Positions 2,039 to 60,393 of a stretch of 64,000 bases of DNA are shown one piece after another. The DNA is from Glycera tridactyla (Eukaryota): the NCBI GenBank assembly GCA_965644265.1, contig OZ286459.1, forward strand, positions 50,840,001-50,904,000, read 5' to 3'. The notes beneath the pieces are model-generated. The model had not been told where the DNA came from. It searched no databases and saw only the letters and a program-made list of their open reading frames with translations. The translations under genes and the position numbers were made by a program. The stretch's first letter is position 1. Each line of letters begins with the position of its first letter.

Positions 2039-2230
2039 GTTAATACCGTACCTGTCTCTCCCTCAAATTTAGCATCCCCCATGCCTAATAACCTATACCG
2101 AATATTTCAAAACATATTGAAAGAATTCTCCCAGATGGACCTCCCGTCACTATCCGTCACTAGCACCGCCTAGTGCTAAATGCCGACATATTGACCTGCC
2201 GGTCACCGCGCATGCGCACGGCGTATTTTC
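2039..2230 (+). repeat. 5' ITR of DIRS element 1
   Basis: gttaataccgtacctgtctctccctcaaatttagcatc...gcgtattttc is the reverse complement of 8937-9126, with about 2 internal mismatches plus the terminal difference. Confidence 0.95.
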
Positions 2231-2675: not shown

Positions 2676-5600
2676 ATGTCACGTCAAGGTGCCTGTGGGC
2701 ACTTCCTTGCGGGTTGGGACCTCCATGAATTTTGCCCTTCATGCAGAGATTGTGGGAAGGGGCAAGACAATGGCGAGGAGGTAGTATGTGATACCTGTGA
2801 GTCCTGGACTGATGAGATGTGGCAGAAGCATTATTCCCGTAGGTCTTATAAGTCTAGGAAATATGCCCAGAAGAATGATTCATCTCCGTCCTCTTCCCAG
2901 AAAGAAGTTGAGAATGTGCAGAAGAGGTCACCTAGAGTATCCCTAAAGAAGCTTGAGGATAGTGATATTCCGTCGACCTCAAAAGTTGGGAAATCGTCTA
3001 GAGCTTCCCTGAAATCTTCTGGATCAGTAAAATCCTCACAGGCCACTGCTAAAACTGCGAAGCAACTAGATTCTGCTTCTATATCCTCTACAGAAGAGTT
3101 TGCTTTCAGGCCTCCGTTAGGTCCCACTAAACCTTCTCCAAAACCTAAAAGAAAGACCTTGTCAGTTCCTGGAGTAGGGAAGGTGGTAGCCAGTTCTGGG
3201 CAACCCATTAGTTCGCCTTCAGAATCAGAGCAGGTTCGGCTGGACCAGATTACTCCTTCCAGTAGCTCAATAGAGCATCCGGGCACCGGGCATCCGGGCA
3301 CCGGGCATCCGGGCACCGGGCATGCCATTAGTGAAAATGAGATGGTCACTGACTTCCTGGCAGATGAAGAGGTTGATCAGTCTCCATGTAATGTCAGTTA
3401 CTATGACGATGAGGAGGAGGAGCCAGAGGGGCCTGGGAAGTTTCACTCTAAGGGAGATGAAGCCCAGGTGACTCAGGAGTATCAGGTAGCTAATGCTAAC
3501 TATGAACAACCATCTCCTAGGGAGCATGATTCTCATACTAGCTCTACCAGTAAACAATTAATACACAAGGCTATGGTGCATAACGATGACAAGGGCCAAC
3601 ATAGGAGCTCCAGAAGCTCACATAAATCACACCGATCACAGAGCTCAGATCACAAAGCACCGGGCACCGGGCACCGGGCATCGGGCACCGGGCACCGGGC
3701 ATCAAGCACTGAGGGTAGTGATAGGTCCAAATCTGAGTCCAAGAGAACAGAGCACCGGTCATCAGATTCAAAGCAGCGATCATCGGGCACGAAAAGCAGG
3801 TCGGCATCTAAATCAAGTGTGAAATCAGATCCGTCCAAAAAGCATAGACAGTCTAGCTCGTCCAAATCACGGAAATCACATAGTACAGAGCATCGGGCAT
3901 CGGGCACCGGGCACACAGCATCAAGCACCGGGCACCGGGCACCCAGTACTGATTTCAGTGTAAAACCTCTTCCAAAGCCTACCACATCCACTCAATCTCA
4001 CTCTAGATCTAGAATGCAACCTCCCTTAGAAGTAGTTCATTCAGATAATGATATAATCATCAGCGAAGAGATTAGTGGAGATAGTAGCGATGAAAGAGAT
4101 TTACTTCCTACTGCCATTTTTGGGAATAAATCGAGCCCAGAATCAAACCCAGCAATGAAACTCGCCTCAGTATTATTTCGGGGCAACAGTAGGAGTAGTA
4201 GGATACCAGTGAGACAGGGCAATGGCTCTGGAACACAACAAGTATCAACCTCAGTGCAGAAGATTCCTCAGAGAATTTCTCAACCCCATCCTCTTCAGTC
4301 AATTCCTACACAACAAGGATGTAGGAAAAGGAAAATTACAAGGAGCTGGATTCCCGAATCTAACCCATCTACCCCGAAACAACAGAATACCCAAGGGGGG
4401 TGGTGGAATACTATGAGGAAGGCTAAGGCCTCAGCTACAGTATCTAGGGCTCCAGATGATGAGGATGATCCCTTAGTTAATGCTGACCTCAGACAACTAC
4501 CAGCGGTAGTTAGTAGCCTTCGTTCCGAATTAAATGACATGAAGCATGAACTTAGTTCAGCCAGAGATGCATTAGCAGCTGCCACATCGGCAGTGGATAG
4601 GGACAGACAGGGAGATGAGGATGATAATGAACGTCCTGCACATACACGCAGACTCCAGAAATTCAGGAGATTTGCGGTTGAAATCCTACCAGATTACATG
4701 GGACTCCCTGACCCCAATGATACTGATCCATGGGGAATAGGCCCGAAGGTGGGAGATACTTCTTTTGATGAAGATCATAGGTCGAAAGACATAGACAGGC
4801 TAGTGGACACAGCGCTTCCTCTTTCTCCAATGGTCCAAAATATTCATAAATTCCTCGACAGGAATTTACAGGGTAGAGAAAGACACCATCAGTCGATAGA
4901 AGATGATGCCAGCCTGAGTGAGTTTGTGGTGGGGAAAGGAGGACCCTCTGAGTCTTTAAATAGAACATTTAAAATGAATTACCCAGTAAGATTTGGTTGT
5001 AATTCTAGGGTCTACAAAATCAGACAATCTGGTGCTGTCCCAGATGATCAATTTGTTTCTCCACCTATAGTCGATAATGATTATTATCAGTTTGGAAAAT
5101 CTTCCAAGAATGACCTCAAACCTTCTCCAGAAGAGTCCATGCTGAGAGAAGCCCTGAAAGTTTTGTCATACACTGATGTGGCCTTTGGGGCAGGCATAAG
5201 ATCAACACAGCCTCATGTAACCAACATACCAGATCTGGAGGAGAGAGCAGAAATTGCCATGCAGGTTGGAATGAAGGCTGTGGAACATGCCACATATATA
5301 GTTTCGAAAGTGGCATGTAATATGCAGTTGAGCAGGAGAGATGCAGCACTCAAAACATGTGGGTTTGACGAAATAGCAAAGGCCCAACTTAGATCTTTAC
5401 CTCTTGGTAGAGAGCATCTCTTTTGCGGCAGACTAAATGAAGCCTCTACAGAAAGCCTCAAAAGATCCAAGATTCGCCGTAATCTAGACAAAGGATTAAG
5501 ATCTAGCTATACAACTCCCACCTCTTCAGCTGGCTTCAACCAATCATTCAAATCTCAGTCCAAGTCAGCATCGAGATCAAGGGGCAACTCTTGGAGGGGG

Positions 5601-5768
5601 AGGGGCAGGGGTAGAGGGTCAGCTCAAGTGACACCAGAACCCACAGAACAAAATCAGTTCAAACCCGCGGATCAGCCAGGTCAGAACCAAACACAGACCA
5701 GGGGCGGTAGAGGAAAGAGGCGATTCTCAGGCAGGCGTTCGGGCAGGGGGAGATATTCCCGGCCCTAG
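2676..5768 (+). CDS. DIRS ORF1 (gag-like): N-terminal Cys/His finger, S/T-G repeat-rich disordered middle, conserved helical C-terminal domain, RG-rich tail
   Basis: ORF track 2658..5768; first ATG at 2676 (MSRQGACGHFLAGWDLHEFCPSCRDCG). The C-terminal RR..L.....LRSLPLG..LF.GRL.EA motif is shared with the four other gag copies. Confidence 0.9.
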   Translation: MSRQGACGHFLAGWDLHEFCPSCRDCGKGQDNGEEVVCDTCESWTDEMWQKHYSRRSYKSRKYAQKNDSSPSSSQKEVENVQKRSPRVSLKKLEDSDIPSTSKVGKSSRASLKSSGSVKSSQATAKTAKQLDSASISSTEEFAFRPPLGPTKPSPKPKRKTLSVPGVGKVVASSGQPISSPSESEQVRLDQITPSSSSIEHPGTGHPGTGHPGTGHAISENEMVTDFLADEEVDQSPCNVSYYDDEEEEPEGPGKFHSKGDEAQVTQEYQVANANYEQPSPREHDSHTSSTSKQLIHKAMVHNDDKGQHRSSRSSHKSHRSQSSDHKAPGTGHRASGTGHRASSTEGSDRSKSESKRTEHRSSDSKQRSSGTKSRSASKSSVKSDPSKKHRQSSSSKSRKSHSTEHRASGTGHTASSTGHRAPSTDFSVKPLPKPTTSTQSHSRSRMQPPLEVVHSDNDIIISEEISGDSSDERDLLPTAIFGNKSSPESNPAMKLASVLFRGNSRSSRIPVRQGNGSGTQQVSTSVQKIPQRISQPHPLQSIPTQQGCRKRKITRSWIPESNPSTPKQQNTQGGWWNTMRKAKASATVSRAPDDEDDPLVNADLRQLPAVVSSLRSELNDMKHELSSARDALAAATSAVDRDRQGDEDDNERPAHTRRLQKFRRFAVEILPDYMGLPDPNDTDPWGIGPKVGDTSFDEDHRSKDIDRLVDTALPLSPMVQNIHKFLDRNLQGRERHHQSIEDDASLSEFVVGKGGPSESLNRTFKMNYPVRFGCNSRVYKIRQSGAVPDDQFVSPPIVDNDYYQFGKSSKNDLKPSPEESMLREALKVLSYTDVAFGAGIRSTQPHVTNIPDLEERAEIAMQVGMKAVEHATYIVSKVACNMQLSRRDAALKTCGFDEIAKAQLRSLPLGREHLFCGRLNEASTESLKRSKIRRNLDKGLRSSYTTPTSSAGFNQSFKSQSKSASRSRGNSWRGRGRGRGSAQVTPEPTEQNQFKPADQPGQNQTQTRGGRGKRRFSGRRSGRGRYSRP

Positions 5769-8768
5769 GGACTCGAGCGTCACTCTCTCATCAGATCGAG
5801 TGGGGGCAAGATTGGCGAGATTTCTTCCAGCTTGGGAGAATCTCACAAGCAACCGTTTCATTCTATCCATCATAGACCAAGGCCTAGTTATCAGGTTCGA
5901 AAGAAATCCAGTTCTATCAGCAAGCTTCTTACCCTTCTCAGGTCCAAGGGTAGGAAGCGTCAAACATCATGCGTTAGAACTGGAAATATCAAAAATGTTG
6001 GACAAAGGGGCTATAGTCCCCATAACGGAACAAAACGAACCAGGCTTCTACAGCAATCTTTTTCTGGTTACAAAAGCGTCGGGCGGTTTTCGCCCTATTA
6101 TAAACTTGAAGCCCCTAAATCGGTTTATCTACAACCAAAGCTTCAAGATGGAGACGGTTCGCTCTGTAGTGAAAGCAGTGCTTCCAGGGGATTGGTCAGT
6201 TTCGATAGATCTCCGGGATGCCTATTTTCACGTCCCCATCCACAAGGACCATCAGAAGTTTTTAAGATTCGCGGTGTCGGCAAGCAGGGCTTTTCAGTTC
6301 CGAGCTCTTCCTTTCGGACTCTGCTCGGCACCAAGAATCTTTACCATGGTCCTGAGAGAGATGGCGCACTATCTACACTCTCGAGGAATCAAGGTACACC
6401 TATATCTGGACGACTGGCTGATTCGACATCAGGATCAGTCAGTCCTCCGACAACATTTGCACATTGTGCTGGAGAAGGCGAAGGAGTTGGGCTGGCTGGT
6501 GAACGAGGAGAAATCCGAGTTAGTTCCCAGCCAGCAATTTGTATATCTAGGAGTGAGGTTCGATACCCAGAGTTCTCTTGTTTTTCCAACTCAAAAGAGG
6601 GTCGAGAAGTTAGAAGCATGCGTCAAATTGTTTCTGAGGAGGCCAGTTCAACCCGCAAGGGCAATTCTGAGACTATTGGGCCACATGTCCAGCCTGTCAG
6701 ACTACATCTGGTTGGGAAGACTCCATATGAGGCCAATTCAGTTGTGCCTTCTAGCTCAATGGAGTCCCCACCACGACAATCTAGAAGACATGCTGAGATT
6801 GACAACAGAAGTCAAGGACATGCTGGTCTGGTGGTCTCAGAGGGAGAACACACTGTCAGGAGTTCCCTTAGTTCTTCCAGATCCTCAGATAACAATAACA
6901 ACAGACGCATCTCTGACCGGATGGGGGGCTCACATAGTAGGTCCAGACATGAGAGACCAGGTAGCAGGGGATTGGCCAGAGAGTTACGAGGAGAGGTCAA
7001 TGAATTCCCTCGAACTGGAAGCGATTCTACTAGCCCTCCAGACCTTCCATCAATATATTGTAAATACTGTAGTACTAATACTCTCCGACAATGCTACCGC
7101 TGTTGCATATGTCAAAAATCAAGGGGGGACCCACAGTGCGCTTCTGTGCGGTCTTGCCTGGAAGATACACAGTCTTGCACATGCAAAGTCAGTCATGCTA
7201 AGGATTCGGCACATTCCAGGACAAAGAAACGTCCTAGCCGACTCCCTATCCCGGTCAAAACCCATCCCAACAGAATGGGAATTGTGTCAACAGACATTTT
7301 CTCAAGTCATAGATCTATTCGGAGTATCTCCTCTGATAGATCTAATGGCAACATTTGCCAACAGAAAACTACCGGTCTTTATCAGTCCCTTCCCCGACCC
7401 GGCAGCACTCGCAGTGGACGCCCTTTCCGTCCAGTGGAACCACTTCGGTGTCGCGTATGTTTTTCCTCCAACTGCACTGTTGAGGGATGTTCTAAACAAG
7501 ATCAGATACAGAGATCTTATCATAATATGCGTGGCACCGTGGTGGCCCAACCAGAGTTGGTTCCCCGATCTGTTGGAGCTATCAGTGACAGACCCGATCC
7601 AATTGCCAGAGACAAGGAATATTCTGACCCAGGTAGTGAAGGGGAAGAGGCTCAACCATTGGAGACCTCAAACCCTGAACCTTCACGCCTGGTGTTTATC
7701 AGGTATGCCCTTGTCTCCAAAGGCTACTCAAATCAGGCTGTCACTCGAATCTCGAAACCTACGAGAAGCTCCACAGAGAGGGTGTATAACTCCAGATGGG
7801 AAGTCTGGGACAGATTCTGTGGGGACAATCGGGTTGATCCGACCGAGGCTCCTCTAACTACAGTCCTAGATTTCTTCATGTTTCTGTGGGATCAGGGGAA
7901 GGGAATTAAGACTCTCAAAGGTTATAAGTCTGCAATGACTTCAGTGTTTATACACTATGACAATGTTACTCTTGAGTCACGGGATCTGAGATCTCTCTTG
8001 AGGAACATGTCGTTAGAACGGCCAGTAGCAAAGAAAGTTATCCCTGCTTGGAATCTTTCAGTTGTTCTAAAATTTTTACTGACCGACCAGTTTGAACCTT
8101 TAGAGAATAGTTCTCTAGAAAATCTGTCTAAGAAGACAATCTTTTTATTATCTTTGGCCTCAGGAAGACGAAGGAGTGAACTGCATGCACTCTCTGGTCT
8201 TCCTGGAGCAATCAGATTCACTCGTGATTTCTCTCGGGTTACATTATTATGTATCCCCGGCTTCCTTGCCAAGAATCAGACTCCTGACAAGGAAGCTCCT
8301 CTCATTGAGATTCCTGCCATCCCAAGAAAGGCTGGTAACTTGAACGATCAAAGATTATTGTGTCCAGTGCGTTGCCTGAAACATTACTTGGAGAGAGTAT
8401 CTTCTTTCAGGGGCACTAGGAGACGATTATTTATTCCTACTTCACAAAACTCTAGAATGGAACTTAGAGTAGATGCCATTACTAAATGTATCCAATCTTT
8501 GATCACGAAATCACATGAGGCAGTGGATGATGACTCTCTAACTGGAGAGAATGTCTCTTCTCATGAAGTGAGAGCTTTAGCCGCTTCGTGGAGACTTTTC
8601 AACAGATCATCCTCGATTGCCGACATTATGCAAGCGGCATATTGGAGGTCGGCAAATACTTTTGCCTCTTTCTATCTGAGAGATCTGTGTGGTCAGGCCA
8701 TGGACCTGTACTCACTGGGACCCTTAGTGGTCGGTCAGAGTGTGGTCTGTCCACCGGACAATGTTTAA
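5769..8768 (+). CDS. DIRS tyrosine recombinase ORF; YR domain ~7690-8768 with a ~640-codon N-terminal extension overlapping pol
   Basis: ORF track 5832..8768, manually extended stop-free back to 5769. Catalytic-type motifs SGRRRSELHAL, FLAKNQ, SHEVRALA, AAYWRS and TFASFYLRD. Confidence 0.92.
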   Translation, partial: GLERHSLIRSSGGKIGEISSSLGESHKQPFHSIHHRPRPSYQVRKKSSSISKLLTLLRSKGRKRQTSCVRTGNIKNVGQRGYSPHNGTKRTRLLQQSFSGYKSVGRFSPYYKLEAPKSVYLQPKLQDGDGSLCSESSASRGLVSFDRSPGCLFSRPHPQGPSEVFKIRGVGKQGFSVPSSSFRTLLGTKNLYHGPERDGALSTLSRNQGTPISGRLADSTSGSVSPPTTFAHCAGEGEGVGLAGERGEIRVSSQPAICISRSEVRYPEFSCFSNSKEGREVRSMRQIVSEEASSTRKGNSETIGPHVQPVRLHLVGKTPYEANSVVPSSSMESPPRQSRRHAEIDNRSQGHAGLVVSEGEHTVRSSLSSSRSSDNNNNRRISDRMGGSHSRSRHERPGSRGLARELRGEVNEFPRTGSDSTSPPDLPSIYCKYCSTNTLRQCYRCCICQKSRGDPQCASVRSCLEDTQSCTCKVSHAKDSAHSRTKKRPSRLPIPVKTHPNRMGIVSTDIFSSHRSIRSISSDRSNGNICQQKTTGLYQSLPRPGSTRSGRPFRPVEPLRCRVCFSSNCTVEGCSKQDQIQRSYHNMRGTVVAQPELVPRSVGAISDRPDPIARDKEYSDPGSEGEEAQPLETSNPEPSRLVFIRYALVSKGYSNQAVTRISKPTRSSTERVYNSRWEVWDRFCGDNRVDPTEAPLTTVLDFFMFLWDQGKGIKTLKGYKSAMTSVFIHYDNVTLESRDLRSLLRNMSLERPVAKKVIPAWNLSVVLKFLLTDQFEPLENSSLENLSKKTIFLLSLASGRRRSELHALSGLPGAIRFTRDFSRVTLLCIPGFLAKNQTPDKEAPLIEIPAIPRKAGNLNDQRLLCPVRCLKHYLERVSSFRGTRRRLFIPTSQNSRMELRVDAITKCIQSLITKSHEAVDDDSLTGENVSSHEVRALAASWRLFNRSSSIADIMQAAYWRSANTFASFYLRDLCGQAMDLYSLGPLVVGQSVVCPPDNV
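5800..7857 (+). CDS. DIRS pol: reverse transcriptase + RNase H + Dam-like methyltransferase domain (start uncertain; frame open from 5632)
   Basis: GFYSNLFLV.K..GGFRPIINLK, SIDLRDAYFHVP, LPFGL..APR.FT and YLDDWL (RT); TDAS..GWGA, LELEAI, SDNATAV and NVLADSLSR (RNase H); IDLMAT..N.KLP.F.SP and AYVFPP...APWWPNQSWFP (MT-like). Confidence 0.95.
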   Translation: MGARLARFLPAWENLTSNRFILSIIDQGLVIRFERNPVLSASFLPFSGPRVGSVKHHALELEISKMLDKGAIVPITEQNEPGFYSNLFLVTKASGGFRPIINLKPLNRFIYNQSFKMETVRSVVKAVLPGDWSVSIDLRDAYFHVPIHKDHQKFLRFAVSASRAFQFRALPFGLCSAPRIFTMVLREMAHYLHSRGIKVHLYLDDWLIRHQDQSVLRQHLHIVLEKAKELGWLVNEEKSELVPSQQFVYLGVRFDTQSSLVFPTQKRVEKLEACVKLFLRRPVQPARAILRLLGHMSSLSDYIWLGRLHMRPIQLCLLAQWSPHHDNLEDMLRLTTEVKDMLVWWSQRENTLSGVPLVLPDPQITITTDASLTGWGAHIVGPDMRDQVAGDWPESYEERSMNSLELEAILLALQTFHQYIVNTVVLILSDNATAVAYVKNQGGTHSALLCGLAWKIHSLAHAKSVMLRIRHIPGQRNVLADSLSRSKPIPTEWELCQQTFSQVIDLFGVSPLIDLMATFANRKLPVFISPFPDPAALAVDALSVQWNHFGVAYVFPPTALLRDVLNKIRYRDLIIICVAPWWPNQSWFPDLLELSVTDPIQLPETRNILTQVVKGKRLNHWRPQTLNLHAWCLSGMPLSPKATQIRLSLESRNLREAPQRGCITPDGKSGTDSVGTIGLIRPRLL

Positions 8769-8806
8769 ATATATAAAGAATTATCCCTCCATCCGTGATA
8801 TATGCG

Positions 8807-8901
8807 GATGCTAAATTTGAGGGAGAGACAGGTACGGTATTAACTACCCCCAGGTTGTTTACTTAACCTGGATGTTAATACCTACCTGTCTCTCCCTCAA
8901 A
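8807..8901 (+). repeat. Internal complementary region (ICR) of element 1
   Basis: The left half is the reverse complement of the 5' terminus and the right half is the reverse complement of the 3' terminus, so together they spell the circle junction ...cctgggggta-gttaatacc... Confidence 0.95.
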
Positions 8902-8936: not shown

Positions 8937-9157
8937 GAAAATACGCCGTGCGCATGCGCGGTGACCGGCAGGTCAATATGTCGGCATTTAGCACTAGGTG
9001 GTGCTAGTGACGGATAGTGACGGGAGGTCCATCTTGGAGAATTCTTTCAATATGTTTTGAAATATTCGGTATAGGTTATTAGGCATGGGGGATGCTAAAT
9101 TTGAGGGAGAGACAGGTAGGTATTAACATCCAGGTTAAGTAAACAACCTGGGGGTAA
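8937..9157 (-). repeat. 3' ITR plus ~30-bp terminal extension of element 1
   Basis: Inverted copy of 2039-2230 followed by atccaggttaagtaaacaacctgggggta. Confidence 0.95.
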
Positions 9158-10144
9158 TTACATGACTCATGACCATGAAGCACAGGAACTACTTCAGGAC
9201 CATGAACCCAAACACCTGTATAACGATAATCTTGGTATATACATATATGATCTGATTAATAAATCTAATTTGTTGATTGGGTAGCTTCAGTTGCAGAATG
9301 AAACAAGTGCAATGAAACAAGTACAAGGGGCAATGTTTGACAGCCTGATTTAAGGTCACAAAAGAAGTTCAAAGCATTAATGCTATGGAGAGAAGATAGT
9401 ACCAGCAAGGAAAAGCACATTTGAGTGTAGAGTTGGATAAACTGCAATCTACAAACATCTCAGTAGCCAGCGTAGTGGAGGCAAAAGAGGTGGATGTTGA
9501 GAGCAGAGTGCATGGAAGTCTTAAGCACAATGAGTAGGACTAGTTGATTAACAATTTTAGGCAGAGCAGCAAGAAAAGAAAAGAAAAGAAAAGAAAATGA
9601 GTAGCTTGATTGATTAACTCCTCCGGACAGGTGAATGAGAATAATTAAGCCCATACACTGGCAAAAGAGATGAGTATAAAGGATGATGGTAGTTCATAAT
9701 GTACATGAAAAAGATTGAAAGTTGATTTATGCTTCATATTCGCTCACCTGGTGGATCAGTCCGGAACTAAAGCATCGGTGGCGCCCCCATCAACCGCGGT
9801 CATTTTTGTAACTAATCAAGATGGCGATGTTGCGCTCAACTCTGCATTCGACGAGGAAATAAAACACATCTCTACGAATTTCACGGCAAGTACCGATATT
9901 CGCAGCACGCGAATCGAGAATATAGGTGTTTGATTAACTATTTGGCCGGATTCTATCGTTGTATTACATTCGCGGAGCTTTTTCACGGCCAATCTTTCGA
10001 GAAAACTCATATTATCGCCCAGCGACACGTGGTACATTTGACCAACGACAGTTTACCCTTCATACGCAAGAATAAAACAGTTCCCGTGTACTACGTGGTA
10101 CATTCGTTATTAGATTTACTCGAGATTTGTCTCGAGTATCTTTG

Positions 10145-10435
10145 ATTGGAGAACCTGGCTTTTTAGCCAAAAACCAGAAACCGGATAGGTTGTCTCCTAT
10201 CATTGATATACCAGCTTTGTCTGGTATGCAAGGTGTCTCTCAGGAAGATCTGTCCTTGTGTCCTGTTAGATGCCTTGAATGTTATCTGAGACGTATTGCT
10301 TCTGTTCGGGGAAACTGAAAGAAGTTATTTGTTGATCCATCTGCCTCTTCAGAGAAGGAGATCAGATTGGATCGCTTGTCCAGATGGGTCCGTGAGAAAG
10401 TGAAGAAGGCTCATTCTTCTGCTGAGGATTCAGTG
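10145..10435 (+). pseudogene. DIRS YR fragment
   Basis: EPGFLAKNQKPDRLSPIIDIPAL...LCPVRCLECYLRR...IRLDRLSRWV, homologous to the YRs of elements 1, 3 and 5; contains a stop. Confidence 0.85.
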
Positions 10436-13231: not shown

Positions 13232-13239
13232 CCGGGTGT

Positions 13240-13770
13240 TATAACCTTTCAATGTCTCTAGATCATTATTCTGATCCCAGTTCAGCATTGAAACCAAGGG
13301 TGCCGAGGTTAGACTAATCCTATTGTCCCGACAACACTGGGCCCAGACTTCCCATCCGGCATTGTATACCCGCTTTGTGGAGCTTCCGGTAGATTTAGCG
13401 ACTCAAAGGATCACCTGAGCTGAATAGCCCTTGGCGACAAGGGCCTCCCTGATATGCACCATGTGTAAAGATTCAGGTTCACTAACTGGATCAGGATGTC
13501 CCTCGAGTCTGGCAGTTGAATAGGATTCATCACTGCCAGCTCAAACAGATCTGGGAACCATGATTGGTTCGGCCACCATGGCACCACTCATACTAGTATC
13601 ATATCTAGATCTCGCTTTTAATGCAGTCGGAGGAAACACGTATACTACCTCGATTTGATCCAAGGGTTTCGATATTGTTGACTGACAATGCGTAGGGATC
13701 CAGAAATGGACTGATGAACACTGGCAGTCGTTTGTTGGCGAACTTTGCAATTAGATCGACCAGGGAAGAC
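13240..13770 (-). pseudogene. Decayed DIRS pol C-terminus (MT-like domain) / YR start
   Basis: VDLIAKFANKRLPVFISPFLDPYALSV, VYVFPPTAL and APWWPNQSWFPDL in shifting frames. Confidence 0.8.
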
Positions 13771-14199
13771 ACTCTGGACTCTGGAGTTGGTCCTATTCTC
13801 ACCTGGTGGCGACTAACTGAACGTGACTCCTCCGTGGCTGCCACCAACCAGAACGAACACCTGGCGGTATCCAGAACGAATGCTACGTGCCGCCAAGCAA
13901 CCATGCCACAGGTGCACTTATACACACTTATCTATCAGTGCCACAGGTGAAACCTACTAGGCGACACCTGGCGGCAGCCAGTTGAATGTGCTTCCATCAG
14001 CGGTGCCACCAAACATAGAGGAAACCATATATGCCAACAACCCATCGCAAGTGCACCATCGGCTCTGAATGAGGACACTCGCTGCCACGACCAGATTGCC
14101 ACCAAATTACCACCTGAAGTGAACATACGGGTCTCGTAGTGACGCAAAACACCCTCACTTGGCTCATAGGAACAGTAGCAATCAGATACACCATGCACA

Positions 14200-14234
14200 C
14201 GCACTCACACACATACATCCACATGCATACACAG

Positions 14235-14305
<71 letters not shown>

Positions 14306-23497: not shown

Positions 23498-26400
23498 TTG
23501 GTTATGTCGACCATGTCACAAAAACGGGGGGGGTGTGGCCATTTCATGGCAATCTGGGATGGTCACACTAAGTGTCCATCATGTAGACCTTGCGGGAAGG
23601 CCACTAATCCTAGTGTGACAGGAGAGACCGTTTGTACAGTTTGTTCAGAATGGTCACCAGAATTGTGGGCTCGTCATTACAGCCGTAGGACCTCTGTTTC
23701 AAAGAAAGGAAAGAAACGAGCTTCTGATCCTGGGGGGGTGGTTAGGGTGGCATCTGTGGTGTCACAATCGTCCCTAAAATCAGGTCAGACTGAACCTATA
23801 GCGAAAGCCCCTAAGATTTGCTCTCCTGTCCGTTGTCCCCGTTCAGATGATGGGTCGGTGTCAGTGACTTCTAAAAGTTGGGAGGAACAATTTTCATTGC
23901 GTCCTAAGCTGTTCAAAATGTTGAAGCAGAATCGAGCTGAAAAGAAGTCATCTGTGAGTGAGGCGTCAAAAGAGATCACATCAACTTTCACTAGGAGTAG
24001 AAAATCGACTAAGCAAAGTCCAAAATCTAGCTCTAAGAAGAGATATAAAGTGATTTCTCCTTTGCAGAAGCCTCCTTGGCCTTGTTCTAGGCAATCTGAT
24101 CAAGTGTGTGAGGAGTCAGTGGATGAAGCCCCGGTGTGTCCGGAGTCGGACGTGTCCGGCAATGAGTCTGGTCCGGGGAGCGAGGATCGCTCAGTGTCCG
24201 GTGTCTCTCTTTCTCCTGGGATGGGAGTTAAAGTGGTTTCCCCCGGGAATACTACGGATGTGAGAGACAGGCAAGACTCAGATGGCTTGTCCGGAGAGGC
24301 TAGGTCCGATACTGAAATGCTGCCGAATGCCCATATTGATTCGTATAGTGTGTGCTCGGGGGAGTGTGATTCCGTCCGTTTCGGGGACAGAGAGGATGAG
24401 CATCATACTCCTTGTCCGGTGGTCCCGTCCGGGAGCCGGTCGTCTGATACACGCAATTCAGATCAGGGTGTCCGGTCCGGTGTCCGGTCTGGTGTCCGGT
24501 CCGGTGGACTGTCTGGTGACCGGTCTGGTGAACGGTCTGGTGGTCTGTCCGGTGACCGGTCCGGTGATCGATCTGGTGATCGGTCTGGTGGTATGTCCTG
24601 TGACCGGTCTGGTGATCGGTCTGGTGGACTGTCCGGTGACCGGTCTGGTGGAGTGTCCGGTGACCGAGCTGGTGAGCGGTCCGGTGGACTGTCCGGTGAC
24701 CGGTCCGGTGGACGATCTGGTGAACGGTCCGGTGGTCTGTCCGGTGTCCGGTCCGGTGGCATGTCCGGTGTCCGGTCCGGTGGCCTGTCCGGTGTCCGGT
24801 CCGGTGGACTGTCCGGTGACCAGTCCGGTGGTCTGTCCGGTGACCAGTCCGGTGGTCTGTCCGGTGACCAGTCCGGTGGTCTGTCCGGTGACCGGTCCGG
24901 TGGTCGGTCCGGTGGTCTGTCCGGTGACCGGTCCGGTGGACATTCTGGTGAACGGTCTGGTGAGCGATCAGGTGGCCGATCAGGTGAATTGTCCGGTGAC
25001 CGGTCAGGTGGACTGTCTGGTGAATGGTCCGGTGGACGGTCCGGTGACCAATCTGGTGGTCGTTTAGCTCAGAATAAGACCCTCAGTGTCCGTTCTTCTG
25101 GTAGTCGAGCAGAGCGTGAGCTATTGTCTAACTTGAATGTGTCTCCAGTCAGGAGTACTGTCCGCCAGGACGCACGTACTGGGGCAGTTTGCAGGAAGAG
25201 GGATGACAGTAGTATAGGTGTACAAGCTAAACGCAGGAAAATACCATCATCCTCAGTTGGAGAGAATTCTCTGTCAACTCGGTCTAAACCTGTGTCTAGT
25301 GACAAATATTTGCCTAAAAAGGTTAGACAGTCAAAATCTTCGGTCCAGGATAGTGGTCAGGTGTTTGTAAAACGTCTGGATCCGGCAGTGTTTGGCTCAG
25401 ATTCTCCGAAGTCCAGTCTGGATCTCAAGCTGGAGAGGATGGCTAGTCAGCGTAAAATGTTGGAGGACCGTTTAGGTGACATTAGACTTATGATGCATGA
25501 TCTAGCCACAGGAGTTCAATCCAGTAGAGAACCTTCTCGTCCTTCTTCTGTTCCTAAGTCTCCAGATACAGTGAGTAGTATGGAGAGTGCGGTTGACCCT
25601 CCAATTCCAGTGAGTAGTACGGGGTCTTCCCATGGGGGCAGTTCTGGGGGACGTCCTAATGTCCCTCACACAGCAGCTGCTCCAGACCAGGAGGCAGTGA
25701 TGGGGCCGCGTAGAAATGAGTCTGGGGAATGGCAGGAATTCAGAAGGCCAGAAGACGTTCAACAGAATGCTCAAATGAGGGCGATGCAGGAACGCATCAA
25801 TGAGCTGATTGCTAGGGCTGACAGGAGAGACGAGGAATCGAGAAATAGGGATGTTTCGGGAGAGGATTCAGATAACGATGAACACCCTATTGTGACGAAG
25901 CGTCTTAGGACGTTCCGTAAGTTTGCTGTGGAAGCCCTGCCCTCTGACGTTCCTTTGCCTCAACCCACTGATTTACCGAGTTGGAGTGTGGTTAGGAGGA
26001 ATGTGAATATTCCTCAGGATGAGGGCAGACATGATAGAGAGGTATCAAGAATGGTGGAGTCAGCGCTACCCTTGTCCTCGCTACTGATCAATGCCCAAGA
26101 GGTATTGGATAGAAGTCTGCAGGGTTTGGAGAAAGAAGATCCTGTACAGGCTGTGTCTGTTCCATTTGAGGATTTTGTGATTGGTCAAGGTGGTATGTTT
26201 GAGGCCAATGCTCGTTACTTCAAGTCCAATCAGCCTAAAGTTTACGGGTGTAACCCGCGTTCTTACGCTATTAGGAAGAACCCTCACAAGCCTAAGGGCT
26301 ATCTGGTGGAAACGCCTAAGGTTGATGGGGACTATGCCCAGTATGGAAAGGCCTCTAAGGCAGACCTTAAGCCTAGCAATGACGAGGTGACGCTGAGGGA

Positions 26401-26965
26401 GGTGTTGAAAATGCTCAGCTACACCGACATATCTTTAGCTGCAGGTTTAGGAGCGGCAGACTTGACCGACAGTCATATTCCGGACGTTAAAACCAAGGCG
26501 AGGGAGGCTATAGGCATTGGTCTCTTAGCTTTGGAACATGTAGCTCTGATGGTTCTCAAGGTGGTGGGTAATATGGAGCTGGCGCGCCGTACCACTGCCT
26601 TGAAAACAATCAACTTTGATGAGGAGACGAAGGCCAAGCTCCGAGTGTTGCCGCTTGGACAACCCTTTCTATTTGGCGGCAAGCTTGATGAGGCCTCTAC
26701 TAGAGCAGGCGAGGTAGGAAGGAGGACACGGGAGTTGGACCATGATTTCAAACCGAAACCGGATAGATCCTCTTCTAATCAGTCCAAATCCTCTCAGAAA
26801 TCGTCGAAAGCGTCCAAATCTAGGGGGAAGGGTCGAGGCAATCGGGGAAAGGGCCGTGGTAAAGGCTCGTCCCAGAAGCAAGGCTCTCAGGATAAGTCTT
26901 CTCCTACAGAGTTCAAGGTGACGTTCCCTAAATCTAAGGGTAGGGGGAAACAGCACCAGCCCTAG
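23498..26965 (+). CDS. DIRS ORF1 (gag-like), 1155 aa with long SGDRSGG repeat
   Basis: [22 protein letters not shown]...CTVCSEW finger; C-terminal [12 protein letters not shown]...[16 protein letters not shown]; RG-rich tail. Confidence 0.9.
24460..25065 (+). repeat. CCGG-rich 12/24-bp-based coding tandem repeat (SGDRSGG[L]) in element 3 gag
   Basis: Repeated ccggtgaccggt / ccggtggtctgt units; several overlapping frames are stop-free. Confidence 0.92.
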
Positions 26966-29944
26966 GGCTTTGTGCGCCACACCGAAGAAGTCGCAGATCG
27001 TGGGAGCTCGTCTCCTTCAATTCCTTCCCGCTTGGAAGGACCTCACATCAAACCGCTTTGTTTTGGACATAGTGGGGATGGGCCTCTCGTTGTCCTTTCG
27101 GGAGCAGCCGCCACTTTCGAAAACTTTCTTGCCCTTTACTCTTCCGAAAGGGCAACAGAAGAGAGAGGCGCTGCTCTCGGAGATCAGAAGCATGGTAGAC
27201 AAGCATGCGGTGGTCCCAGTAGATCTTTCAGATCAAGAAGGGTTCTACTGCAACCTGTTTCTGGTCGCCAAGGCGACGGGAGGCTTCAGACCCGTGATAA
27301 ACTTAAAACCGTTAAACGCATACGTTTACAACCAGAAGTTCAAGATGGAGACGGCCGCGTCAGTTGTCAAGTCAGTGGCTTTGAACGACTGGACCGTCTC
27401 CATCGACCTCAAGGATGCATACTTTCACATCCCGATGCATCCTCGTTATCAGAAATATCTGCGATTTGCCGTGTCTCCAAAGGAGGCTTATCAATTTCGA
27501 GCTCTCCCTTTCGGACTGAACACGGCACCACGGGTGTTCACCATGGTTCTTCGGGAAGTGGCGCACCACTTACACGAGCAGGGGATCAAAGTCCACTTCT
27601 ACCTGGACGATTGGCTCCTGAGACACCAGAATCCGTCGGTTTTACAGAATCAGTTGGAGTACGTCCTTCGTCTGGCGGCCAGGCTGGGGTGGGTGGTCAA
27701 CAAGGAAAAGTCGGATTTGATTCCCAGCCAGACTTTTACTTATCTGGGAATAGAATTCGACACCCACGCCGGTCTGGTCAGACCAGCAATCAAGAGGGTG
27801 GAAAAGATGATTCTTTGCACAAGGCTGTTTCTGCGCAGACCTTGTCAACCGGCGCGAGCGGTGCTCAGGTTGCTAGGCCATATGTCCAGTATGGCGGGCT
27901 TTGTGAACCTGGGTCGTTTGTATATGAGACCGATTCAAATGGCCTTACTCTCACAGTGGAGGCCGTTTATGGATCATCTGGAGATGATGGTCTCTATGCC
28001 CTCAGAAGTCATGGGGATCCTGACTTGGTGGGGGGATCGATCCAATCTGTACAAAGGGGTTCCTTTGGTTCCTCCTCGACCGACTATGACATTGGTCACG
28101 GATGCTTCTCTCGATGGTTGGGGGGCGCATCTGTCAAAGGGGGAGAGCATGTGGCAGGCTTCGGGCACATGGCCTCAGTCGCGTCAGGACCACTCCATCA
28201 ATGTGTTGGAGTTAGAGACGATTTTTCTGGCACTGGAGGAGTTCTCTTCCAGAATTCAGAACCAGGTTCTTCTGGTATTATGCGACAATGTAACGGCTGT
28301 GTCTTATTTGTCGAAGCAGGGAGGCACCCATTCATCCCTGCTTTGCGGGTTGGCTTGGAGGATCTTCATGCTAACTCGGGGGTTGGGTGTCTCTCTAAAG
28401 GTCCGACATATTCCGGGCAAGCGCAATGTGCTTGCGGATGCTCTCTCCCGTTCGAAGCCGATCAACACGGAATGGGAACTGGACGAAGGGGTTTTTCACC
28501 AGGTCGTGGACTGTTTCAAACTATGTCCGTTGATAGATCTCATGGCAACCCCGTTGAACGCGAAACTTCCGGTGTTTGTATCTCCATTCCCGGACCAAAG
28601 GGCGTTCGCGGTAGACGCTCTGTCCTTGCCGTGGAATCAGTTCGGAGTGGCGTATATTTTCCCTCCGACGGCACTGATTCGGGAGGTTCTCAATGCTCTA
28701 AGAGGTCAGGAAACCACGCTGATTTGCATAGCCCCTTGGTGGCCAAATCAGTCGTGGTTTCCGGACCTTCTGGAGATGTCTATCGATCTCCCAAGAGAGT
28801 TACCTCCTATCGCGTCTCTCCTAACCCAAGTGGTGAATCGGAGAAGACTACATCATTTCAGACCCCAGGTCATGAATCTGACCGCATGGTGTTTGTCCGG
28901 AGTGCCCTCTCCAGCAGGGGTTACTCGGCAGAGGCAACGAAGCGGATCGCTTCATCTGTCCGTTCATCCTCAGCGCGCATCTATGACTCCAGATGGAAGA
29001 GGTGGTTTTACTGGTGCCAGTCCAACAGGGTGGATTGTAAGAATCCCCTTGCACCACAAGTAGTGGAATTCTTCCTCTCTCTTTTTGACGCCGGTCTGAA
29101 GCCGGCTACCATCTGGGGTTATAGAAATGCGCTCCAATCTGTATTCGTTTATACGGATTGCTCTGTTTTGGATGGTCGTGTTATGAAGGCTCTGCAGAGT
29201 AACTTTGCGCTGGAGAGGCCAGTGTCCAACAGACCCACTCCTCAGTGGAATCTTGCCGTGGTTTTGCGTTTTCTGTCATCTCAGCGTTTTACGCTCTCTC
29301 CAACTATTTCGTTGGTCGATTTGACAAGAAAGACGGCCTTTCTGTTGACACTGGCTTCGGGCAGACGCCGGAGTGAGGTTCGTGCCTTTTCTGGGTCTGA
29401 AGGATCCGTGATCTTTGCGGCTGACAGATCTTCTGTTAAGCTGTTTTCGGTTCCTGGGTTTTTGGCTAAAGGCCAGAAGCCTTCCAAACGATCTCCTACT
29501 GTGACTATTCCCGCTATTCCTCCTGGTAGAGGAAATGAGACACTGTGTCCGGTTCGCAATCTGGAATACTACCTGAGGGTGGTTTCTGAATTCAGAGGTA
29601 ACCGGGTAAGACTTTTTGTGCCACCTAATCGTTTCACGTCAGCAGAGATTAGGGTGGATCGCTTGTCCTGCTGGATTCAGCAGGTAGTGCGTTTGGCCTA
29701 TGATTGTTCTGATCAGGTCATGCGGGATGAATCAGTCTCTGCCCATGAGGTCAGGGCTATTTCGACCTCTTGGAGATCACTGAACCACGCGTGTCCTGTT
29801 GAGGACCTAATGCAGGCCGCTTATTGGAGGTCTTCCAATACCTTCCTCTCGTTCTATCTGAGAGACATGTGCGGCCAGGCTGGGGATCTATACTCCTTGG
29901 GCCCGATCGTGGCGGCCCAATCTCTGGTAGACCCAGCCGACTAG
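26966..29944 (+). CDS. DIRS YR ORF with long N-terminal extension overlapping pol; YR domain from ~28885
   Basis: ORF track 26972..29944, open from 26966; SGRRRSEVRAF, FLAKGQ, AHEVRAIS, AAYWRS and TFLSFYLRD. Confidence 0.92.
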   Translation, partial: GFVRHTEEVADRGSSSPSIPSRLEGPHIKPLCFGHSGDGPLVVLSGAAATFENFLALYSSERATEERGAALGDQKHGRQACGGPSRSFRSRRVLLQPVSGRQGDGRLQTRDKLKTVKRIRLQPEVQDGDGRVSCQVSGFERLDRLHRPQGCILSHPDASSLSEISAICRVSKGGLSISSSPFRTEHGTTGVHHGSSGSGAPLTRAGDQSPLLPGRLAPETPESVGFTESVGVRPSSGGQAGVGGQQGKVGFDSQPDFYLSGNRIRHPRRSGQTSNQEGGKDDSLHKAVSAQTLSTGASGAQVARPYVQYGGLCEPGSFVYETDSNGLTLTVEAVYGSSGDDGLYALRSHGDPDLVGGSIQSVQRGSFGSSSTDYDIGHGCFSRWLGGASVKGGEHVAGFGHMASVASGPLHQCVGVRDDFSGTGGVLFQNSEPGSSGIMRQCNGCVLFVEAGRHPFIPALRVGLEDLHANSGVGCLSKGPTYSGQAQCACGCSLPFEADQHGMGTGRRGFSPGRGLFQTMSVDRSHGNPVERETSGVCISIPGPKGVRGRRSVLAVESVRSGVYFPSDGTDSGGSQCSKRSGNHADLHSPLVAKSVVVSGPSGDVYRSPKRVTSYRVSPNPSGESEKTTSFQTPGHESDRMVFVRSALSSRGYSAEATKRIASSVRSSSARIYDSRWKRWFYWCQSNRVDCKNPLAPQVVEFFLSLFDAGLKPATIWGYRNALQSVFVYTDCSVLDGRVMKALQSNFALERPVSNRPTPQWNLAVVLRFLSSQRFTLSPTISLVDLTRKTAFLLTLASGRRRSEVRAFSGSEGSVIFAADRSSVKLFSVPGFLAKGQKPSKRSPTVTIPAIPPGRGNETLCPVRNLEYYLRVVSEFRGNRVRLFVPPNRFTSAEIRVDRLSCWIQQVVRLAYDCSDQVMRDESVSAHEVRAISTSWRSLNHACPVEDLMQAAYWRSSNTFLSFYLRDMCGQAGDLYSLGPIVAAQSLVDPAD
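26970..29063 (+). CDS. DIRS pol (RT + RNase H + MT-like); start uncertain
   Basis: SIDLKDAYFHIP, FYLDDWLL, TDASLDGWGA, LELETI, CDNVTAV, NVLADALSR and AYIFPP. Confidence 0.95.
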   Translation: MCATPKKSQIVGARLLQFLPAWKDLTSNRFVLDIVGMGLSLSFREQPPLSKTFLPFTLPKGQQKREALLSEIRSMVDKHAVVPVDLSDQEGFYCNLFLVAKATGGFRPVINLKPLNAYVYNQKFKMETAASVVKSVALNDWTVSIDLKDAYFHIPMHPRYQKYLRFAVSPKEAYQFRALPFGLNTAPRVFTMVLREVAHHLHEQGIKVHFYLDDWLLRHQNPSVLQNQLEYVLRLAARLGWVVNKEKSDLIPSQTFTYLGIEFDTHAGLVRPAIKRVEKMILCTRLFLRRPCQPARAVLRLLGHMSSMAGFVNLGRLYMRPIQMALLSQWRPFMDHLEMMVSMPSEVMGILTWWGDRSNLYKGVPLVPPRPTMTLVTDASLDGWGAHLSKGESMWQASGTWPQSRQDHSINVLELETIFLALEEFSSRIQNQVLLVLCDNVTAVSYLSKQGGTHSSLLCGLAWRIFMLTRGLGVSLKVRHIPGKRNVLADALSRSKPINTEWELDEGVFHQVVDCFKLCPLIDLMATPLNAKLPVFVSPFPDQRAFAVDALSLPWNQFGVAYIFPPTALIREVLNALRGQETTLICIAPWWPNQSWFPDLLEMSIDLPRELPPIASLLTQVVNRRRLHHFRPQVMNLTAWCLSGVPSPAGVTRQRQRSGSLHLSVHPQRASMTPDGRGGFTGASPTGWIVRIPLHHK

Positions 29945-36800: not shown

Positions 36801-37004
36801 TCGACGGGTTACAGAGGTAACTCAACGAGAGGTAGAGGCAGAGGTAGGGGATTTGGTTCACACAAGCAAGATGAGGAGGGACAAACATCTTTCCAATCAC
36901 AATCCTAGACTCAAAATGCCAATCAAGGTCAAAATCAGTCATCAAGAGGGGATAGAAGACCGTTCGGTAAAAGAAGGGGTCGCGGTAGGGGGCGTCGGCC
37001 CCAG
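33837..37004 (+). pseudogene. Element 4 gag-like ORF1, disrupted
   Basis: MSAKGPTRGDCGHCYAAWDNHRLCPSCRDCG; fragments 33861..34556, 35115..35546, 35577..36188 and 36225..36908 carry the conserved C-terminal domain. Confidence 0.88.
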
Positions 37005-39025
37005 GATGAGGGGCGTCACCTCTCAGACTCCGGCAGTGGGAGCCAGACTCGCCCAACTTTTGCCAGCCTGGCAGGACCTGACAGAAAACAGATTTATTCT
37101 GAGTATAGTAGAAGAAGGTTAGGATTCGTCAAACAGCCAAGCCTATCTCAAGAGTTATTACCCTTCTCAGGGCCAAAAGAGGGAAGTCTAAAACACCTCG
37201 CCTTTAGATCTGAACAGTCCACCAGGGTTTTACAGCAATTTGTTCCTGGTGGAGAAAGCTTCAGGGGGTTTTTGCCCATCCGTTGGTTTCACAATCAATG
37301 GTTCAAGATGAAGACAGTCAGGTCCGTGGTGAAGGCAGTCCTTCCCAACGATTGGTCTGTATCAATAGACCTGAGGGATGCCTATTTCCACATCCCAATT
37401 TACAAGGACCATCAGAGGTATCTGAGATTTGCTGTGTCAAAAGAAGTTGCGTACCAGTTCAGAGCGCTTCCTTTTGGCCTGTGCACAGCTCCTCGGATAT
37501 TTACTATGGTTCTCCGGGACATGGCGCAGCATTTGCATCTGAAGGCCATCAAGGTTCACCTTTTTTTGGATGATTGGCTGATTCTTCATCAGTGTCCAAG
37601 AACCTTGATGTCCCAACTGAATTATGTGACTCCGTTAGCAACCAATTTAGGTTGGCTTATCAATCAAGAGAAATCGGAGATGACCCCCCAGGCAACAGTT
37701 TTCTTATCTGGGAGTCTTCTTCGATACAGCCAATCAGATTGTTCTCCCAACCAAGCAGAGAGTCGAGAAGCTGAAAGGTTGTCTGAGACTATCTATTCGA
37801 AAACCTTTTAACCGGCAAGGGCAGTCCTCAGGATATTAGGACACATGTCCAGCCTGTCAGATCTGATTATTCTAGGAAGGCTTCACATGAGGCCTCTACA
37901 GTTATGTCTCTTGTCCCAATGGCGTCCTCATTCAGACAGTCTGGAGAGCATGATCTCCATCTATCCCGAGGTGATCTCAATCCTAAAATGGTGGCAAGAC
38001 AGAGCGAACACCCTGGGAGGAGTTCCCTTGTCGCCAAAAGAATCTCAGTTGACGATCACCACGGATGCTTCCCTGGAGGGGTGGGGAGCGCATATATCAG
38101 GGGACAACATAAGAGATCGGATTTCAGGAGAATGGCCAGACAGTTACAGGAAGAGGTCCATCAACTTCCTGGAGCTGGAAGCTATTTTTCTGGCCTTGGA
38201 GAACTTCCTTGAATATATCAGGAAGAAGATCATTCTTATCCTGTCAGACAACGTGACAGCGATAGCTCATGTTCAAAACCAAGGTGGAACACACAGCTCG
38301 TGTCTGTGTGGTCTGGCTTGGCAGATTCTGACTCTGACAAACAGCTTGGAAACAGTAGTAAGGGTTCACCATATACCGGGCAAGAGGAACATGCTAGCAG
38401 AGGCACTATCACGTTCCCAATCCATTCAAACAGAATGGGAACTTCATCCCGAGATCTCCCAACATATTTTGGACAGATTCATGATTTCACCAACAGTGGA
38501 CCTGATGGCCACACATCTGAATACCAGACTACCGGTATTCATCAGTCCTTTTCCTGACCAGTCAGCCTTGGGGTGGATGCTCTCTCGATAAGTTGGGCTC
38601 AGTTTCAGACAGCGAATATGTATCCTCCAACAGCTCTTATCAGGGACATCCTAAACAAATTGAGGGGTCTTAACCTGATTCTAGTGTGCATCGCACCATA
38701 TTGGCCAAATCAGGCCTGGTTCCCAGGTTTGATGGAGCTCTCAATCAAGAACCCTCTGGAGTTACCTGTCCTGAGGGACCTATTGACCCAGGTCATGAAG
38801 GGGAAGAGACCGAACCACAGGCGTCCACAAGTTCTCAACCTTCACGCCTGGTGTCTATCAGGCAAGCCCTTGAGGGCAGGAACTTCCCATATGATGCAAT
38901 CATCAGAATTTCCCAGCCAACAAGATCATCAACAGCCAGGATGTATGATGCCAGATGGGAGATATGGTACCAACAATGCAGAAATAACAACATTTTGGCA
39001 ACCAATCCCCCTCTCTCCTACCTGA
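37005..39025 (+). pseudogene. Element 4 pol, disrupted
   Basis: AVGARLAQLLPAW, SIDLRDAYFHIP, FLDDWL, TDASLEGWGA and NMYPP in several frames. Confidence 0.92.
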
Positions 39026-59700: not shown

Positions 59701-60374
59701 ATTTCGATCATGGCAATGCCTCGAAAGCTGACCTGAAGCCCTCTCAGGAGGAGATAATCCTTAGGGACAGTCTTAAGGTTCTCTCATACACTGATGTTGC
59801 CCTGGCCACTGGTTTGACAGGTGCTGAGGGAGTAGACAAATCAGCCGAAACCCAGGAGAAGGCTAGGGAAGCCATCAGGGTGGGGTTACATGCAGTAGAA
59901 CATGTTGCCATTATGGTTGCCAAGGTTCTAGGCAATCTGGAATTGTCTAGGCGTTCCACGGCCCTCAAGTCTATGAAGTTTGATGATGACGTGAGAGCCA
60001 AATTGAGGACCCTTCCTTTGGGCCAGGAGTTGCTTTTTGGTGGGAAGCTAGATGAGGCAGTAGACTTGGCTTCAGAGAAAGCTCTGAGAAGGAGGAATAT
60101 AGAGTTTGAGTTTAATTCCTCCTCTAGGGACAAAGCTAGAGAGGCTAGATCTCAATATAGTTCCCAGCCGTCTGCCAGTCAAGGTCGTGGTAGAGGCAAG
60201 AAGAAGAGAGGTTCTTCCTCCAGAGGTAGGGGAAGAGGTCGTGGTCAGAGCACCCCTCAAGATTCTACTCCCCAGGCTCAAGGGCCAGTGACTGCTCCCG
60301 GGAAAGCAGGACAGAAAGATCAGGGGAGACAGTTCTTCAAGAAAAGGGGGAGGGGTCGCGCAGCCCAGCTCTAG
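56717..60374 (+). pseudogene. Element 5 gag-like ORF1 (frameshift at ~58005, stop at 58452)
   Basis: [24 protein letters not shown]; SGVSGKSGK repeats at 57465-57885; conserved C-terminal domain in 58494..60374. Confidence 0.9.
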
Positions 60375-60393
60375 GGGTGCGTGCGTCACTTCT

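Follow-up and report, generated by a model that had tools for sequence, protein, structure and literature searches.

How does a retrotransposon make its second and third proteins when its gag-like frame closes on a stop codon, its pol lies in +1 and its recombinase follows in the frame of gag? The window, by which we mean the whole 64-kb stretch of DNA analysed here, holds four plus-strand elements of this kind, each with inverted terminal repeats (ITRs). Their coding content is a gag-like ORF, a reverse transcriptase (RT) with RNase H and a tyrosine recombinase (YR).

Three ORFs with a long overlap have been described for such elements (PMC3266345, PMC5633606, PMC3783388, PMC9210276, PMC6681497, PMC7192593), and the accessible portions of the same six papers give no route to pol or to YR. 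Likewise, the portions of the literature surveyed do not address how Pol and YR are expressed in DIRS elements, or why half of these elements carry a 2-kb overlap between ORFs. A review of frameshifting (PMC5009743) does not mention DIRS in the first 300,000 of its 449,034 characters, and the accessible part of bioRxiv 2021.04.08.439009 holds nothing relevant. We found no published account of readthrough or +1 shifting in DIRS1 elements in the literature searched; Goodwin and Poulter 2001, Poulter and Butler 2015 and Gao et al. 2003 may raise it. Our analysis reduces the expression question to a site of 7 nt.

Elements of the window

The elements of the window are DIRS1-like tyrosine-recombinase retrotransposons. 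This class assignment follows from the combination of RT/RNase H and a YR with its R-H-R-Y residues with ITRs as well as an ICR (internal complementary region). RT and RNase H are related to Ty3/Gypsy (Pfam RVT_1, E 3.7e-25, and RT_RNaseH, E 2e-4, in the pol of element 1), and the top PDB matches of element 1 pol are to Ty3 RT and Gag-Pol. A tyrosine recombinase stands in place of a DDE integrase. Its residues R112, H243, R246 and Y280 are kept in at least 90% of 23 aligned rows, and a profile built from 23 YR domains matches Cre (E 5.5e-5). Single YR sequences matched Phage_integrase of Pfam only below the cut-off, and a PDB search with a single YR-domain sequence gave nothing useful. The C-terminal 185 aa of pol are conserved among families, and no Pfam match was found there when a methyltransferase-like domain was sought.

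Elements 1 and 3 have three intact frames, and elements 4 and 5 are decayed. On the plus strand, element 1 opens with its left terminus and ITR at 2039..2230, the two 182-nt arms (2049-2230 and 8937-9118) being 99% complementary, and closes with the right ITR and a right extension at 8937..9160. Its ICR at 8806..8901 is complementary to both element ends, with 8806-8844 pairing to 2039-2077, and these repeats are not split direct repeats. The gag-like ORF1 runs from its first ATG at 2676 to a TAG (2676..5768), and carries a Cys/His motif near the N-terminus and an RGG-rich tail. It matched no Pfam family, and the label "gag-like" comes from its position and its likeness to ORF1 of other elements. 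The junction heptamer CCC TAG G, a candidate site of +1 shifting and readthrough, occupies 5763..5769, with the gag stop at 5766-5768. The pol frame, encoding RT and RNase H, is open over 5632..7857 in +1 to gag; its VGARL motif is at 5800 and its first AUG comes only at codon 122. The YR frame (5769..8768) is the frame of gag, and consists of a stop-free, unconserved bridge of ~640 codons over pol and then the YR domain at ~7689-8765. Element 3, also on the plus strand, repeats this layout with a gag-like ORF at 23504..26965, the junction CCC TAG G at 26960..26966, a +1 pol frame at 26922..29063 that opens only 14 codons before the gag stop, and a YR frame of 992 codons at 26966..29944, in frame with gag. 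The plus-strand junctions of the two decayed copies carry private changes, CCC CAG G in element 4 (36999..37005) and CTC TAG G in element 5 (60369..60375).

Much of what the initial annotation had read from the letters holds in these elements. This includes the junction codons (CCC TAG GGA at 5763, CCC TAG GGC at 26960, CCC CAG GAT at 36999 and CTC TAG GGG at 60369), the frame past the gag stop that stays open (for 999 codons in the case of element 1, for 992 in that of element 3), and a pol frame in +1 that opens at 5632, 26922 and 60292. No AUG precedes VGARL in elements 1 and 3, or in the junction translation of element 5; the register of stop-x-x-x-R-H is kept, and the YR domain starts with L in element 1 and M in element 3.

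Several further features of the window were observed. All five window elements (2597, 23379, 33802 and 56681 on the plus strand, 12566 on the minus strand) share a 13-nt motif, TGTGAYTTTCATA, in their 5' leaders, and it recurs in 31 of 42 full-length stretches. At the element ends (9073-9143, 13175-13245, 17229-17299, 30418-30488, 40223-40293, 63656-63726) there is a strong splice-donor-like G/GTAAGT or CAG/GTAGGT, conserved across families, which may serve as a U1 site or belong to the recombinase site. Gag ORFs contain expanding tandem repeats of 12 nt, 9 nt and 7/14 nt that encode low-complexity Ser/Gly-rich stretches (24347-25070, 57469-57910, 3601-3952). DIRS elements and fragments are nested in one another or follow directly behind one another (10100-17300, and L121 200-1511, where the end of the YR ORF just precedes the next element), and a minus-strand element interrupts another DIRS element at its YR start near 13235. 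In locus L131 (1057-2876) gag is broken by another coding insertion, whose ORFs resemble a different RT element. Minus-strand remnants of LINE-like endonuclease/RT, together with one more RT fragment that is on the plus strand, are found at 30965-32500, 40585-41253, 48503-51461 and 44766-46514.

The gag stop in the host genome

To collect copies from the host genome, elements 1, 3, 4 and 5 and two distant relatives supplied the queries. The 200 loci obtained are the best-scoring candidates only, not de-duplicated by place; 194 of them could be anchored on the VGxRL motif, which is independent of the junction, and they form 24 clusters at 88% nucleotide identity. CCC TAG G is present in 180 of the 194 anchored loci (176 in register, 4 with an indel further on), and 14 deviate from it by scattered changes. 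CCC precedes the stop in 22 of the 24 clusters. Twenty additional full-length stretches, all anchored, have TAG-G in register in every case, after CCC in 19 and CCT in one. Isolated copies have TGG, TAC or TAA at the gag-stop codon. The stop context is thus conserved when the site is aligned across genomic copies, and the conserved signal, CCC TAG G, is sharper than the YAG|G consensus claimed before.

The initial annotation had also seen an interchange of TAG and CAG, and had taken it to fit both Gln readthrough and a splice acceptor. Among the relatives of element 4, 23 of the 27 anchored loci read CCCTAGG, 4 have other TAG/TAA variants and none has CAG (2 of 29 were unanchored and left out of the count); among those of element 5, CCCTAGG is found in 27 of 28 anchored loci and CTC in none. 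The change from TAG to CAG in element 4 is decay, in a copy with 10 stops in its best gag frame. As CAG and CTC occur in none of these relatives, there is no such interchange, and the argument from CAG to Gln or to an acceptor fails because CAG is private to a single decayed copy.

In gag tails 59 of the 268 Pro codons are CCC, and in pol 202 of the 451 AGR codons are AGG. At the junction both are fixed in 22 family representatives, which were chosen as motif-bearing (the two clusters without a representative are single copies), and the residue after the stop varies between G, D, E and A. Since CCC and AGG are fixed here despite mixed codon use elsewhere in gag tails and pol, the constraint lies on the nucleotides. 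A separate observation in the otherwise unconserved RGG tail is a peptide [KNH]VTF, often F[KN]VTF, 13-16 codons before the gag stop (window 26912-26926; L133, L137, L243, L248, L250, L275, L279, L301 and L302); it resembles the PP1-docking RVxF motif.

Behind the stop, a motif G-N-G-C-G-Y-C-A-C lies at a fixed distance (5775..5783 on the plus strand in element 1, from position counts in the 22 family representatives). It encodes R-H in the YR frame and V/A-T in the pol frame, and may reflect a protein constraint in two frames or a stimulator acting through its primary sequence. Folding of the downstream RNA, which had been suggested along with the earlier reading, gave neither a pseudoknot of the gammaretroviral type nor a conserved stem-loop: the mean folding z is +0.06 over 22 families, and the consensus folding energy of 20 aligned families is -1.7 kcal/mol. 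No shared first stem was found behind the stop by the programs used, whose scope ends short of pseudoknots, and the compact 3' structure ~8 nt after the stop that marks a type III signal is absent by folding in 20-22 families. Rfam (E up to 1) gave four matches over element 1, all below the gathering score and none at the junction. A candidate hairpin, CGYCAC/GTGG, was rejected, with the Val codon appearing as GTG, GTA or GTT without compensation and no folding signal.

Frames and stop signals across lineages

Of 8000 candidates scored in a protein search, 1273 proved to be relatives, and an alignment of 31 pol proteins led to 80 metagenome and 21 genome-collection loci; viral contigs yielded one distant locus, which was excluded from the counts. 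With 22 elements of the host's own genome included, 121 of 123 loci were anchored and form 78 clusters at 80% pol identity. The genome-collection loci bear the labels of bacterial metagenome bins, and the DIRS contigs filed there (MAGs of Sedimenticola, Breoghania, Brevinema and others; L221, L223-L241) are probably animal host DNA. First-pass counts use the 56 of 78 clusters picked for intact frames. The key point is repeated in an unselected test, in which the gag stop was placed by a gag-core profile and pol by the VG of its conserved motif; 67 clusters were testable, nearly all from organisms other than the host, and 11 were not. Since the lineages are related, P values that assume independence would overstate the case.

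Pol is in +1 in 59 of the 67 testable clusters, and all but one of these 59 (58) have just one stop and then 300 or more open codons. In frames 0, +1 and +2 of the 59 clusters, stops number 0, 0 and 13 over codons 1-5 after the gag stop, 1, 0 and 8 over codons 6-10, and 0, 0 and 24 over codons 11-20, giving 1, 0 and 45 over the first 20 codons and 2, 0 and 1160 over 300. The +1 frame is open by selection downstream of VG, but the linker from the stop to VG is not so selected, and it has no pol-frame stop in 1026 codons, where 10.6-25.8 are expected. These statistics place the architecture that was first noticed in the window beyond chance. Upstream of the gag stop, pol-frame stops occur in every bin at the rate expected from the gag residues, the nearest lying 13-14 codons before it. 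An entry into pol far upstream within gag is rejected because pol-frame stops there match expectation. The upstream stops near 13 codons and the open linker therefore confine pol entry to a stretch from ~13 codons before the stop to the first codons after it. The YR frame is entered at or just after the gag stop. Taken together, entry to both frames very probably takes place at the gag stop or within a few codons of it.

Initiation codons are not conserved. The open pol frame has no AUG before VG in 29 of the 56 intact lineages, and in the YR frame the position of the first AUG ranges widely, from codon 9 to codon 543. A GUG start at the Val of VGARL was considered and ruled out, as this codon varies between GTG, GTA, GTC and GTT and is GTG in only 21 of 56.

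The bridge between the gag stop and the YR domain is conserved as an open frame and not as a protein. Across 15 families its peptide shows no higher conservation than the third frame, which is non-coding. Over 360 codons in 56 lineages it has no stops where ~720 are expected from the pol residues, and the third frame has stops as expected; this count used representatives chosen for their open frame, and the 67-cluster test is unselected. Both bridge and motif might be by-products of codon use in pol under a protein constraint in two frames, and a Pro at the end of gag with Pro-Arg in the pol frame would together fix CCC TAG. The missing stops of the bridge, beside a third frame with its expected number, speak against this, as does the codon after CCT, which is always AGG and never AGA though the residue after the stop varies; we give this possibility hardly any credence.

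The stop codon and the codon before it carry signals of their own. The gag stop is TGA in 30, TAG in 25 and TAA in 1 of the 56 intact lineages (in the unselected set, TAA in 1 of 59 +1 lineages), whereas the YR stop of the same elements is TAA in 15 of 45. TGA-C, TAG-C or TAG-G is found at 47 of 56 gag stops against 11 of 45 YR stops. UGA-C (type II) and UAG-G (type III) are readthrough contexts (PMC3159437), and the type III context UAG-G is present at the junction. The last gag codon has identical second and third positions, the minimum for re-pairing in +1, in 36 of 56 lineages against 14.9 expected from the preceding 40 codons; the same is seen at 9 of 45 YR stops and in 10-23 at neighbouring offsets. 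This excess persists after collapse at 55% identity (~18 of 29 against 7.8 expected). Five last codons, CCC, TCC, AAA, TTT and GTT, account for 28 of 56, against 6.5 expected. An AAA-stop is a site of +1 shifting in euplotids. In antizyme mRNAs, a stop preceded by CCC, UCC, UUU or GUU serves as a +1 site (PMC1874602). CCC TAG G itself appears in separate parts of the pol tree (quick method, midpoint root). A single codon thus bears both a leaky-stop and a shift-prone signature. In 20 of 56 lineages (GAT, AGA, AAG, CAG, TAC and others) the last codon is unable to re-pair in +1, and the pol route may differ there for this reason. A -2 slip was ruled out, because re-pairing on AGC/GGC/GTC would be needed.

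We suggest from these patterns that three products probably arise at one codon. Termination at CCC UAG G would give Gag; a predicted +1 slip, with CCC UAG G re-read as CCU AGG, would give Gag-Pol; and predicted readthrough of the gag stop would give Gag-linker-YR. Slow termination at UAG-G could leave tRNA-Pro long enough to re-pair one base forward, or give a near-cognate tRNA the chance of reading UAG instead, and the ~640-codon bridge would be translated only as the passage to the YR domain. We judge the +1 shift to be a good candidate for the route to pol in the clade of the host genome, and readthrough a reasonably good one for the route to YR; that all three outcomes share the codon we favour only slightly. 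The recoding branch of the initial annotation, readthrough together with the re-reading as CCU AGG, fits every comparative test, and it is from comparison that we infer it.

Two other ways of using the same stop have to be weighed against this three-product reading. In one, ribosomes would terminate and then, no more than a few codons away, start again without an AUG, in +1 for Pol and in 0 for YR, with no Gag fusions. LINE-1 ORF2 is a precedent for such re-initiation. It would explain the avoidance of stops in two frames from the stop onward equally well and would cover the 20 of 56 lineages with a last codon that does not re-pair. In 4 of 22 host families the pol frame has an AUG directly behind the stop, and 7 of 56 lineages have one somewhere from the stop to VG. 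It predicts neither the avoidance of TAA nor the leaky +4 base nor the re-pairing bias of the last codon, and conservation of a start codon is lacking, also at the Val of VG; we therefore consider it improbable, with a small share of the weight.

In the other, only one event would take place at the stop, for example a +1 shift to pol with a later -1 shift to YR out of the pol frame a few codons on, or readthrough to YR with a shift to pol just after. The stop counts bound entry only to ~5-10 codons, and a -1 shift into YR has been proposed for Ngaro elements (Poulter and Butler 2015, quoted in PMC13003380). Other frame relations also exist among the 8 of 67 clusters in which pol is not in +1: in L165 and L198/L202 gag, stop and pol are in frame (TGA-C, TAA-C) with YR in -1, and in L200, outside the testable set, YR is in +1 and pol in -1 after TTT TAG C. 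These may be decayed copies or real variants; L139, L159, L176 and L237 look decayed or like anchor errors, and L170 and L219/L220 are members of a clade that shows splice-like signals. Leaky context and re-pairing codon are however both centred on the stop, and no slippery run after it is conserved in 20 aligned families, which leaves a single event at the stop an unlikely account.

Splicing, recoding and known systems

The initial annotation had offered a second branch, in which TAG|G itself is the 3' splice site of subgenomic pol/YR mRNAs. The minimal form of such an acceptor is present in all 22 family representatives. It comes without a pyrimidine tract, as the 17 nt upstream are purine-rich (mean 37% pyrimidine, almost no T), and with other AGs at most 27 nt upstream in 22 of 22, including a CAG six bases upstream in 15. 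On a crude in-house scale its median acceptor score is -4.1, against -0.8 for ordinary YAG in pol. An acceptor does not require the C at -4 and the G at +1 that are invariant here, and the CAG copy (element 4) is private. Moreover, 30 of 56 lineages of the same architecture end gag in TGA, and these cannot splice at the gag stop because TGA cannot be an acceptor. This branch therefore falls away almost entirely, and we regard it as very improbable.

A different kind of splicing deserves more attention, in which pol and YR would come from RNA spliced to acceptors 15-45 nt past the stop, with TGA-C as a branch point, or from a short intron that removes the stop. In L170, L176, L219 and L220, a branch-like TAAC or TGAC is followed by a pyrimidine tract and, 20-26 nt behind the stop, by a CAG, with the same phase throughout (phase 1 to pol). 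These four are the members with the gag end in view of a well-supported clade (L170, L176, L177, L219, L220) whose YR frame has stops up to 107-299 nt past VG, and the sequences suggest that this clade likely makes pol by splicing. They show what an acceptor looks like in such elements, and the TAG|G of the host genome is unlike it; they also keep a downstream acceptor alive for some TGA-C lineages. Within 45 nt, ~20 of 56 bridge lineages have an acceptor that scores fairly on a crude in-house scale, element 1 types have an acceptor-like stretch at 5780-5794, and several families have GTGAC or GTAAC ~45 nt before the stop. Against this, bridge lineages are stop-free in both frames already at codons 1-10, where the third frame is not, the first AG of TGA lineages falls evenly over the phases (9/13/8), the upstream region has no strong donor in common, and the types of elements 3 and 5 have no such stretch. 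The upstream GT sites coincide with the F[KN]VTF peptide and match the donor consensus weakly. None of 187 copies has gag replaced at a site near the stop. For the bridge lineages we find a spliced origin unlikely, with a chance no better than that of a single event at the stop.

Processed (spliced) copies were sought among the same 187 in a test that is weak. Six copies lose likeness to their relatives within 400 nt upstream of VG, and they were rejected as candidates, their breakpoints being unshared and 143-372 nt from VG. Run X1 covers element 1 evenly, with peaks on the termini and a longest contig of 15.4 kb, which suggests low-coverage DNA with no bearing on expression; no GT..AG joint on element 1 was found in this run. 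Two observations in run X1 concern another part of the element. Depth is about six-fold higher at the pol end and YR start (7581-7827), and five contig joints lead from there to the ICR (7711-7730 to 8775-8784). They may hint at abundant derivatives without a YR domain, but the joints have short sides and are perhaps chance matches of other families.

What can be read directly from the sequences is the architecture, the invariant heptamer, the avoidance of stops in two frames, the lack of conserved AUGs and a bridge protein that is not conserved. A wider generalisation of the three-product reading is tentative, and we would put its chances at somewhat under even: in animal DIRS1-like elements one stop might serve as a three-way switch that sets the ratio of Gag, RT and recombinase without RNA structure, the overlap would only carry ribosomes to the recombinase, and one clade would have swapped the switch for a splice acceptor close behind that stop. 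If true, readthrough and a +1 shift utilised at the same stop would make an unusual recoding element. Annotations in which Pol or YR begins with the first AUG are probably in error, and natural codon-stop variants are available by the dozen for the study of termination and frame maintenance.

Among LTR-related retroelements, Ty1 and Ty3 have pol in +1 to gag and reach it by a +1 gag-pol frameshift. Ty1 and Ty3 shift at sense codons inside the overlap, whereas the signals here point to the stop codon itself. In gammaretroviruses a single stop likewise lies between gag and an in-frame enzyme ORF, with type III UAG-G at the gag-pol junction and UGA-C as type II (PMC3159437). Unlike there, the in-frame product here is a recombinase and not RT, behind ~640 unconserved codons, and the type III readthrough of gammaretroviruses depends on a pseudoknot, whereas folding finds no conserved RNA structure at the DIRS junctions. 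Antizyme mRNAs provide the other comparison, as there, too, ribosomes enter the +1 ORF from the final sense codon ahead of the stop, and the same P-site codons are enriched here. Antizyme sites are UGA in ~97% (PMC1874602), whereas the elements of the host genome have UAG. In further contrast to antizyme, no 3' pseudoknot or stem-loop was found here, and a second product lies in frame 0 behind the same stop. The closest relatives are other DIRS1-like elements such as Dictyostelium DIRS-1, with which the long ORF overlap is shared (Piednoel et al. 2011, PMC3266345). This overlap was already known, and the new element is the constrained gag stop as a putative recoding site: unlike in the description of PMC3266345, as far as its accessible portions go, the overlap here begins exactly at that stop.
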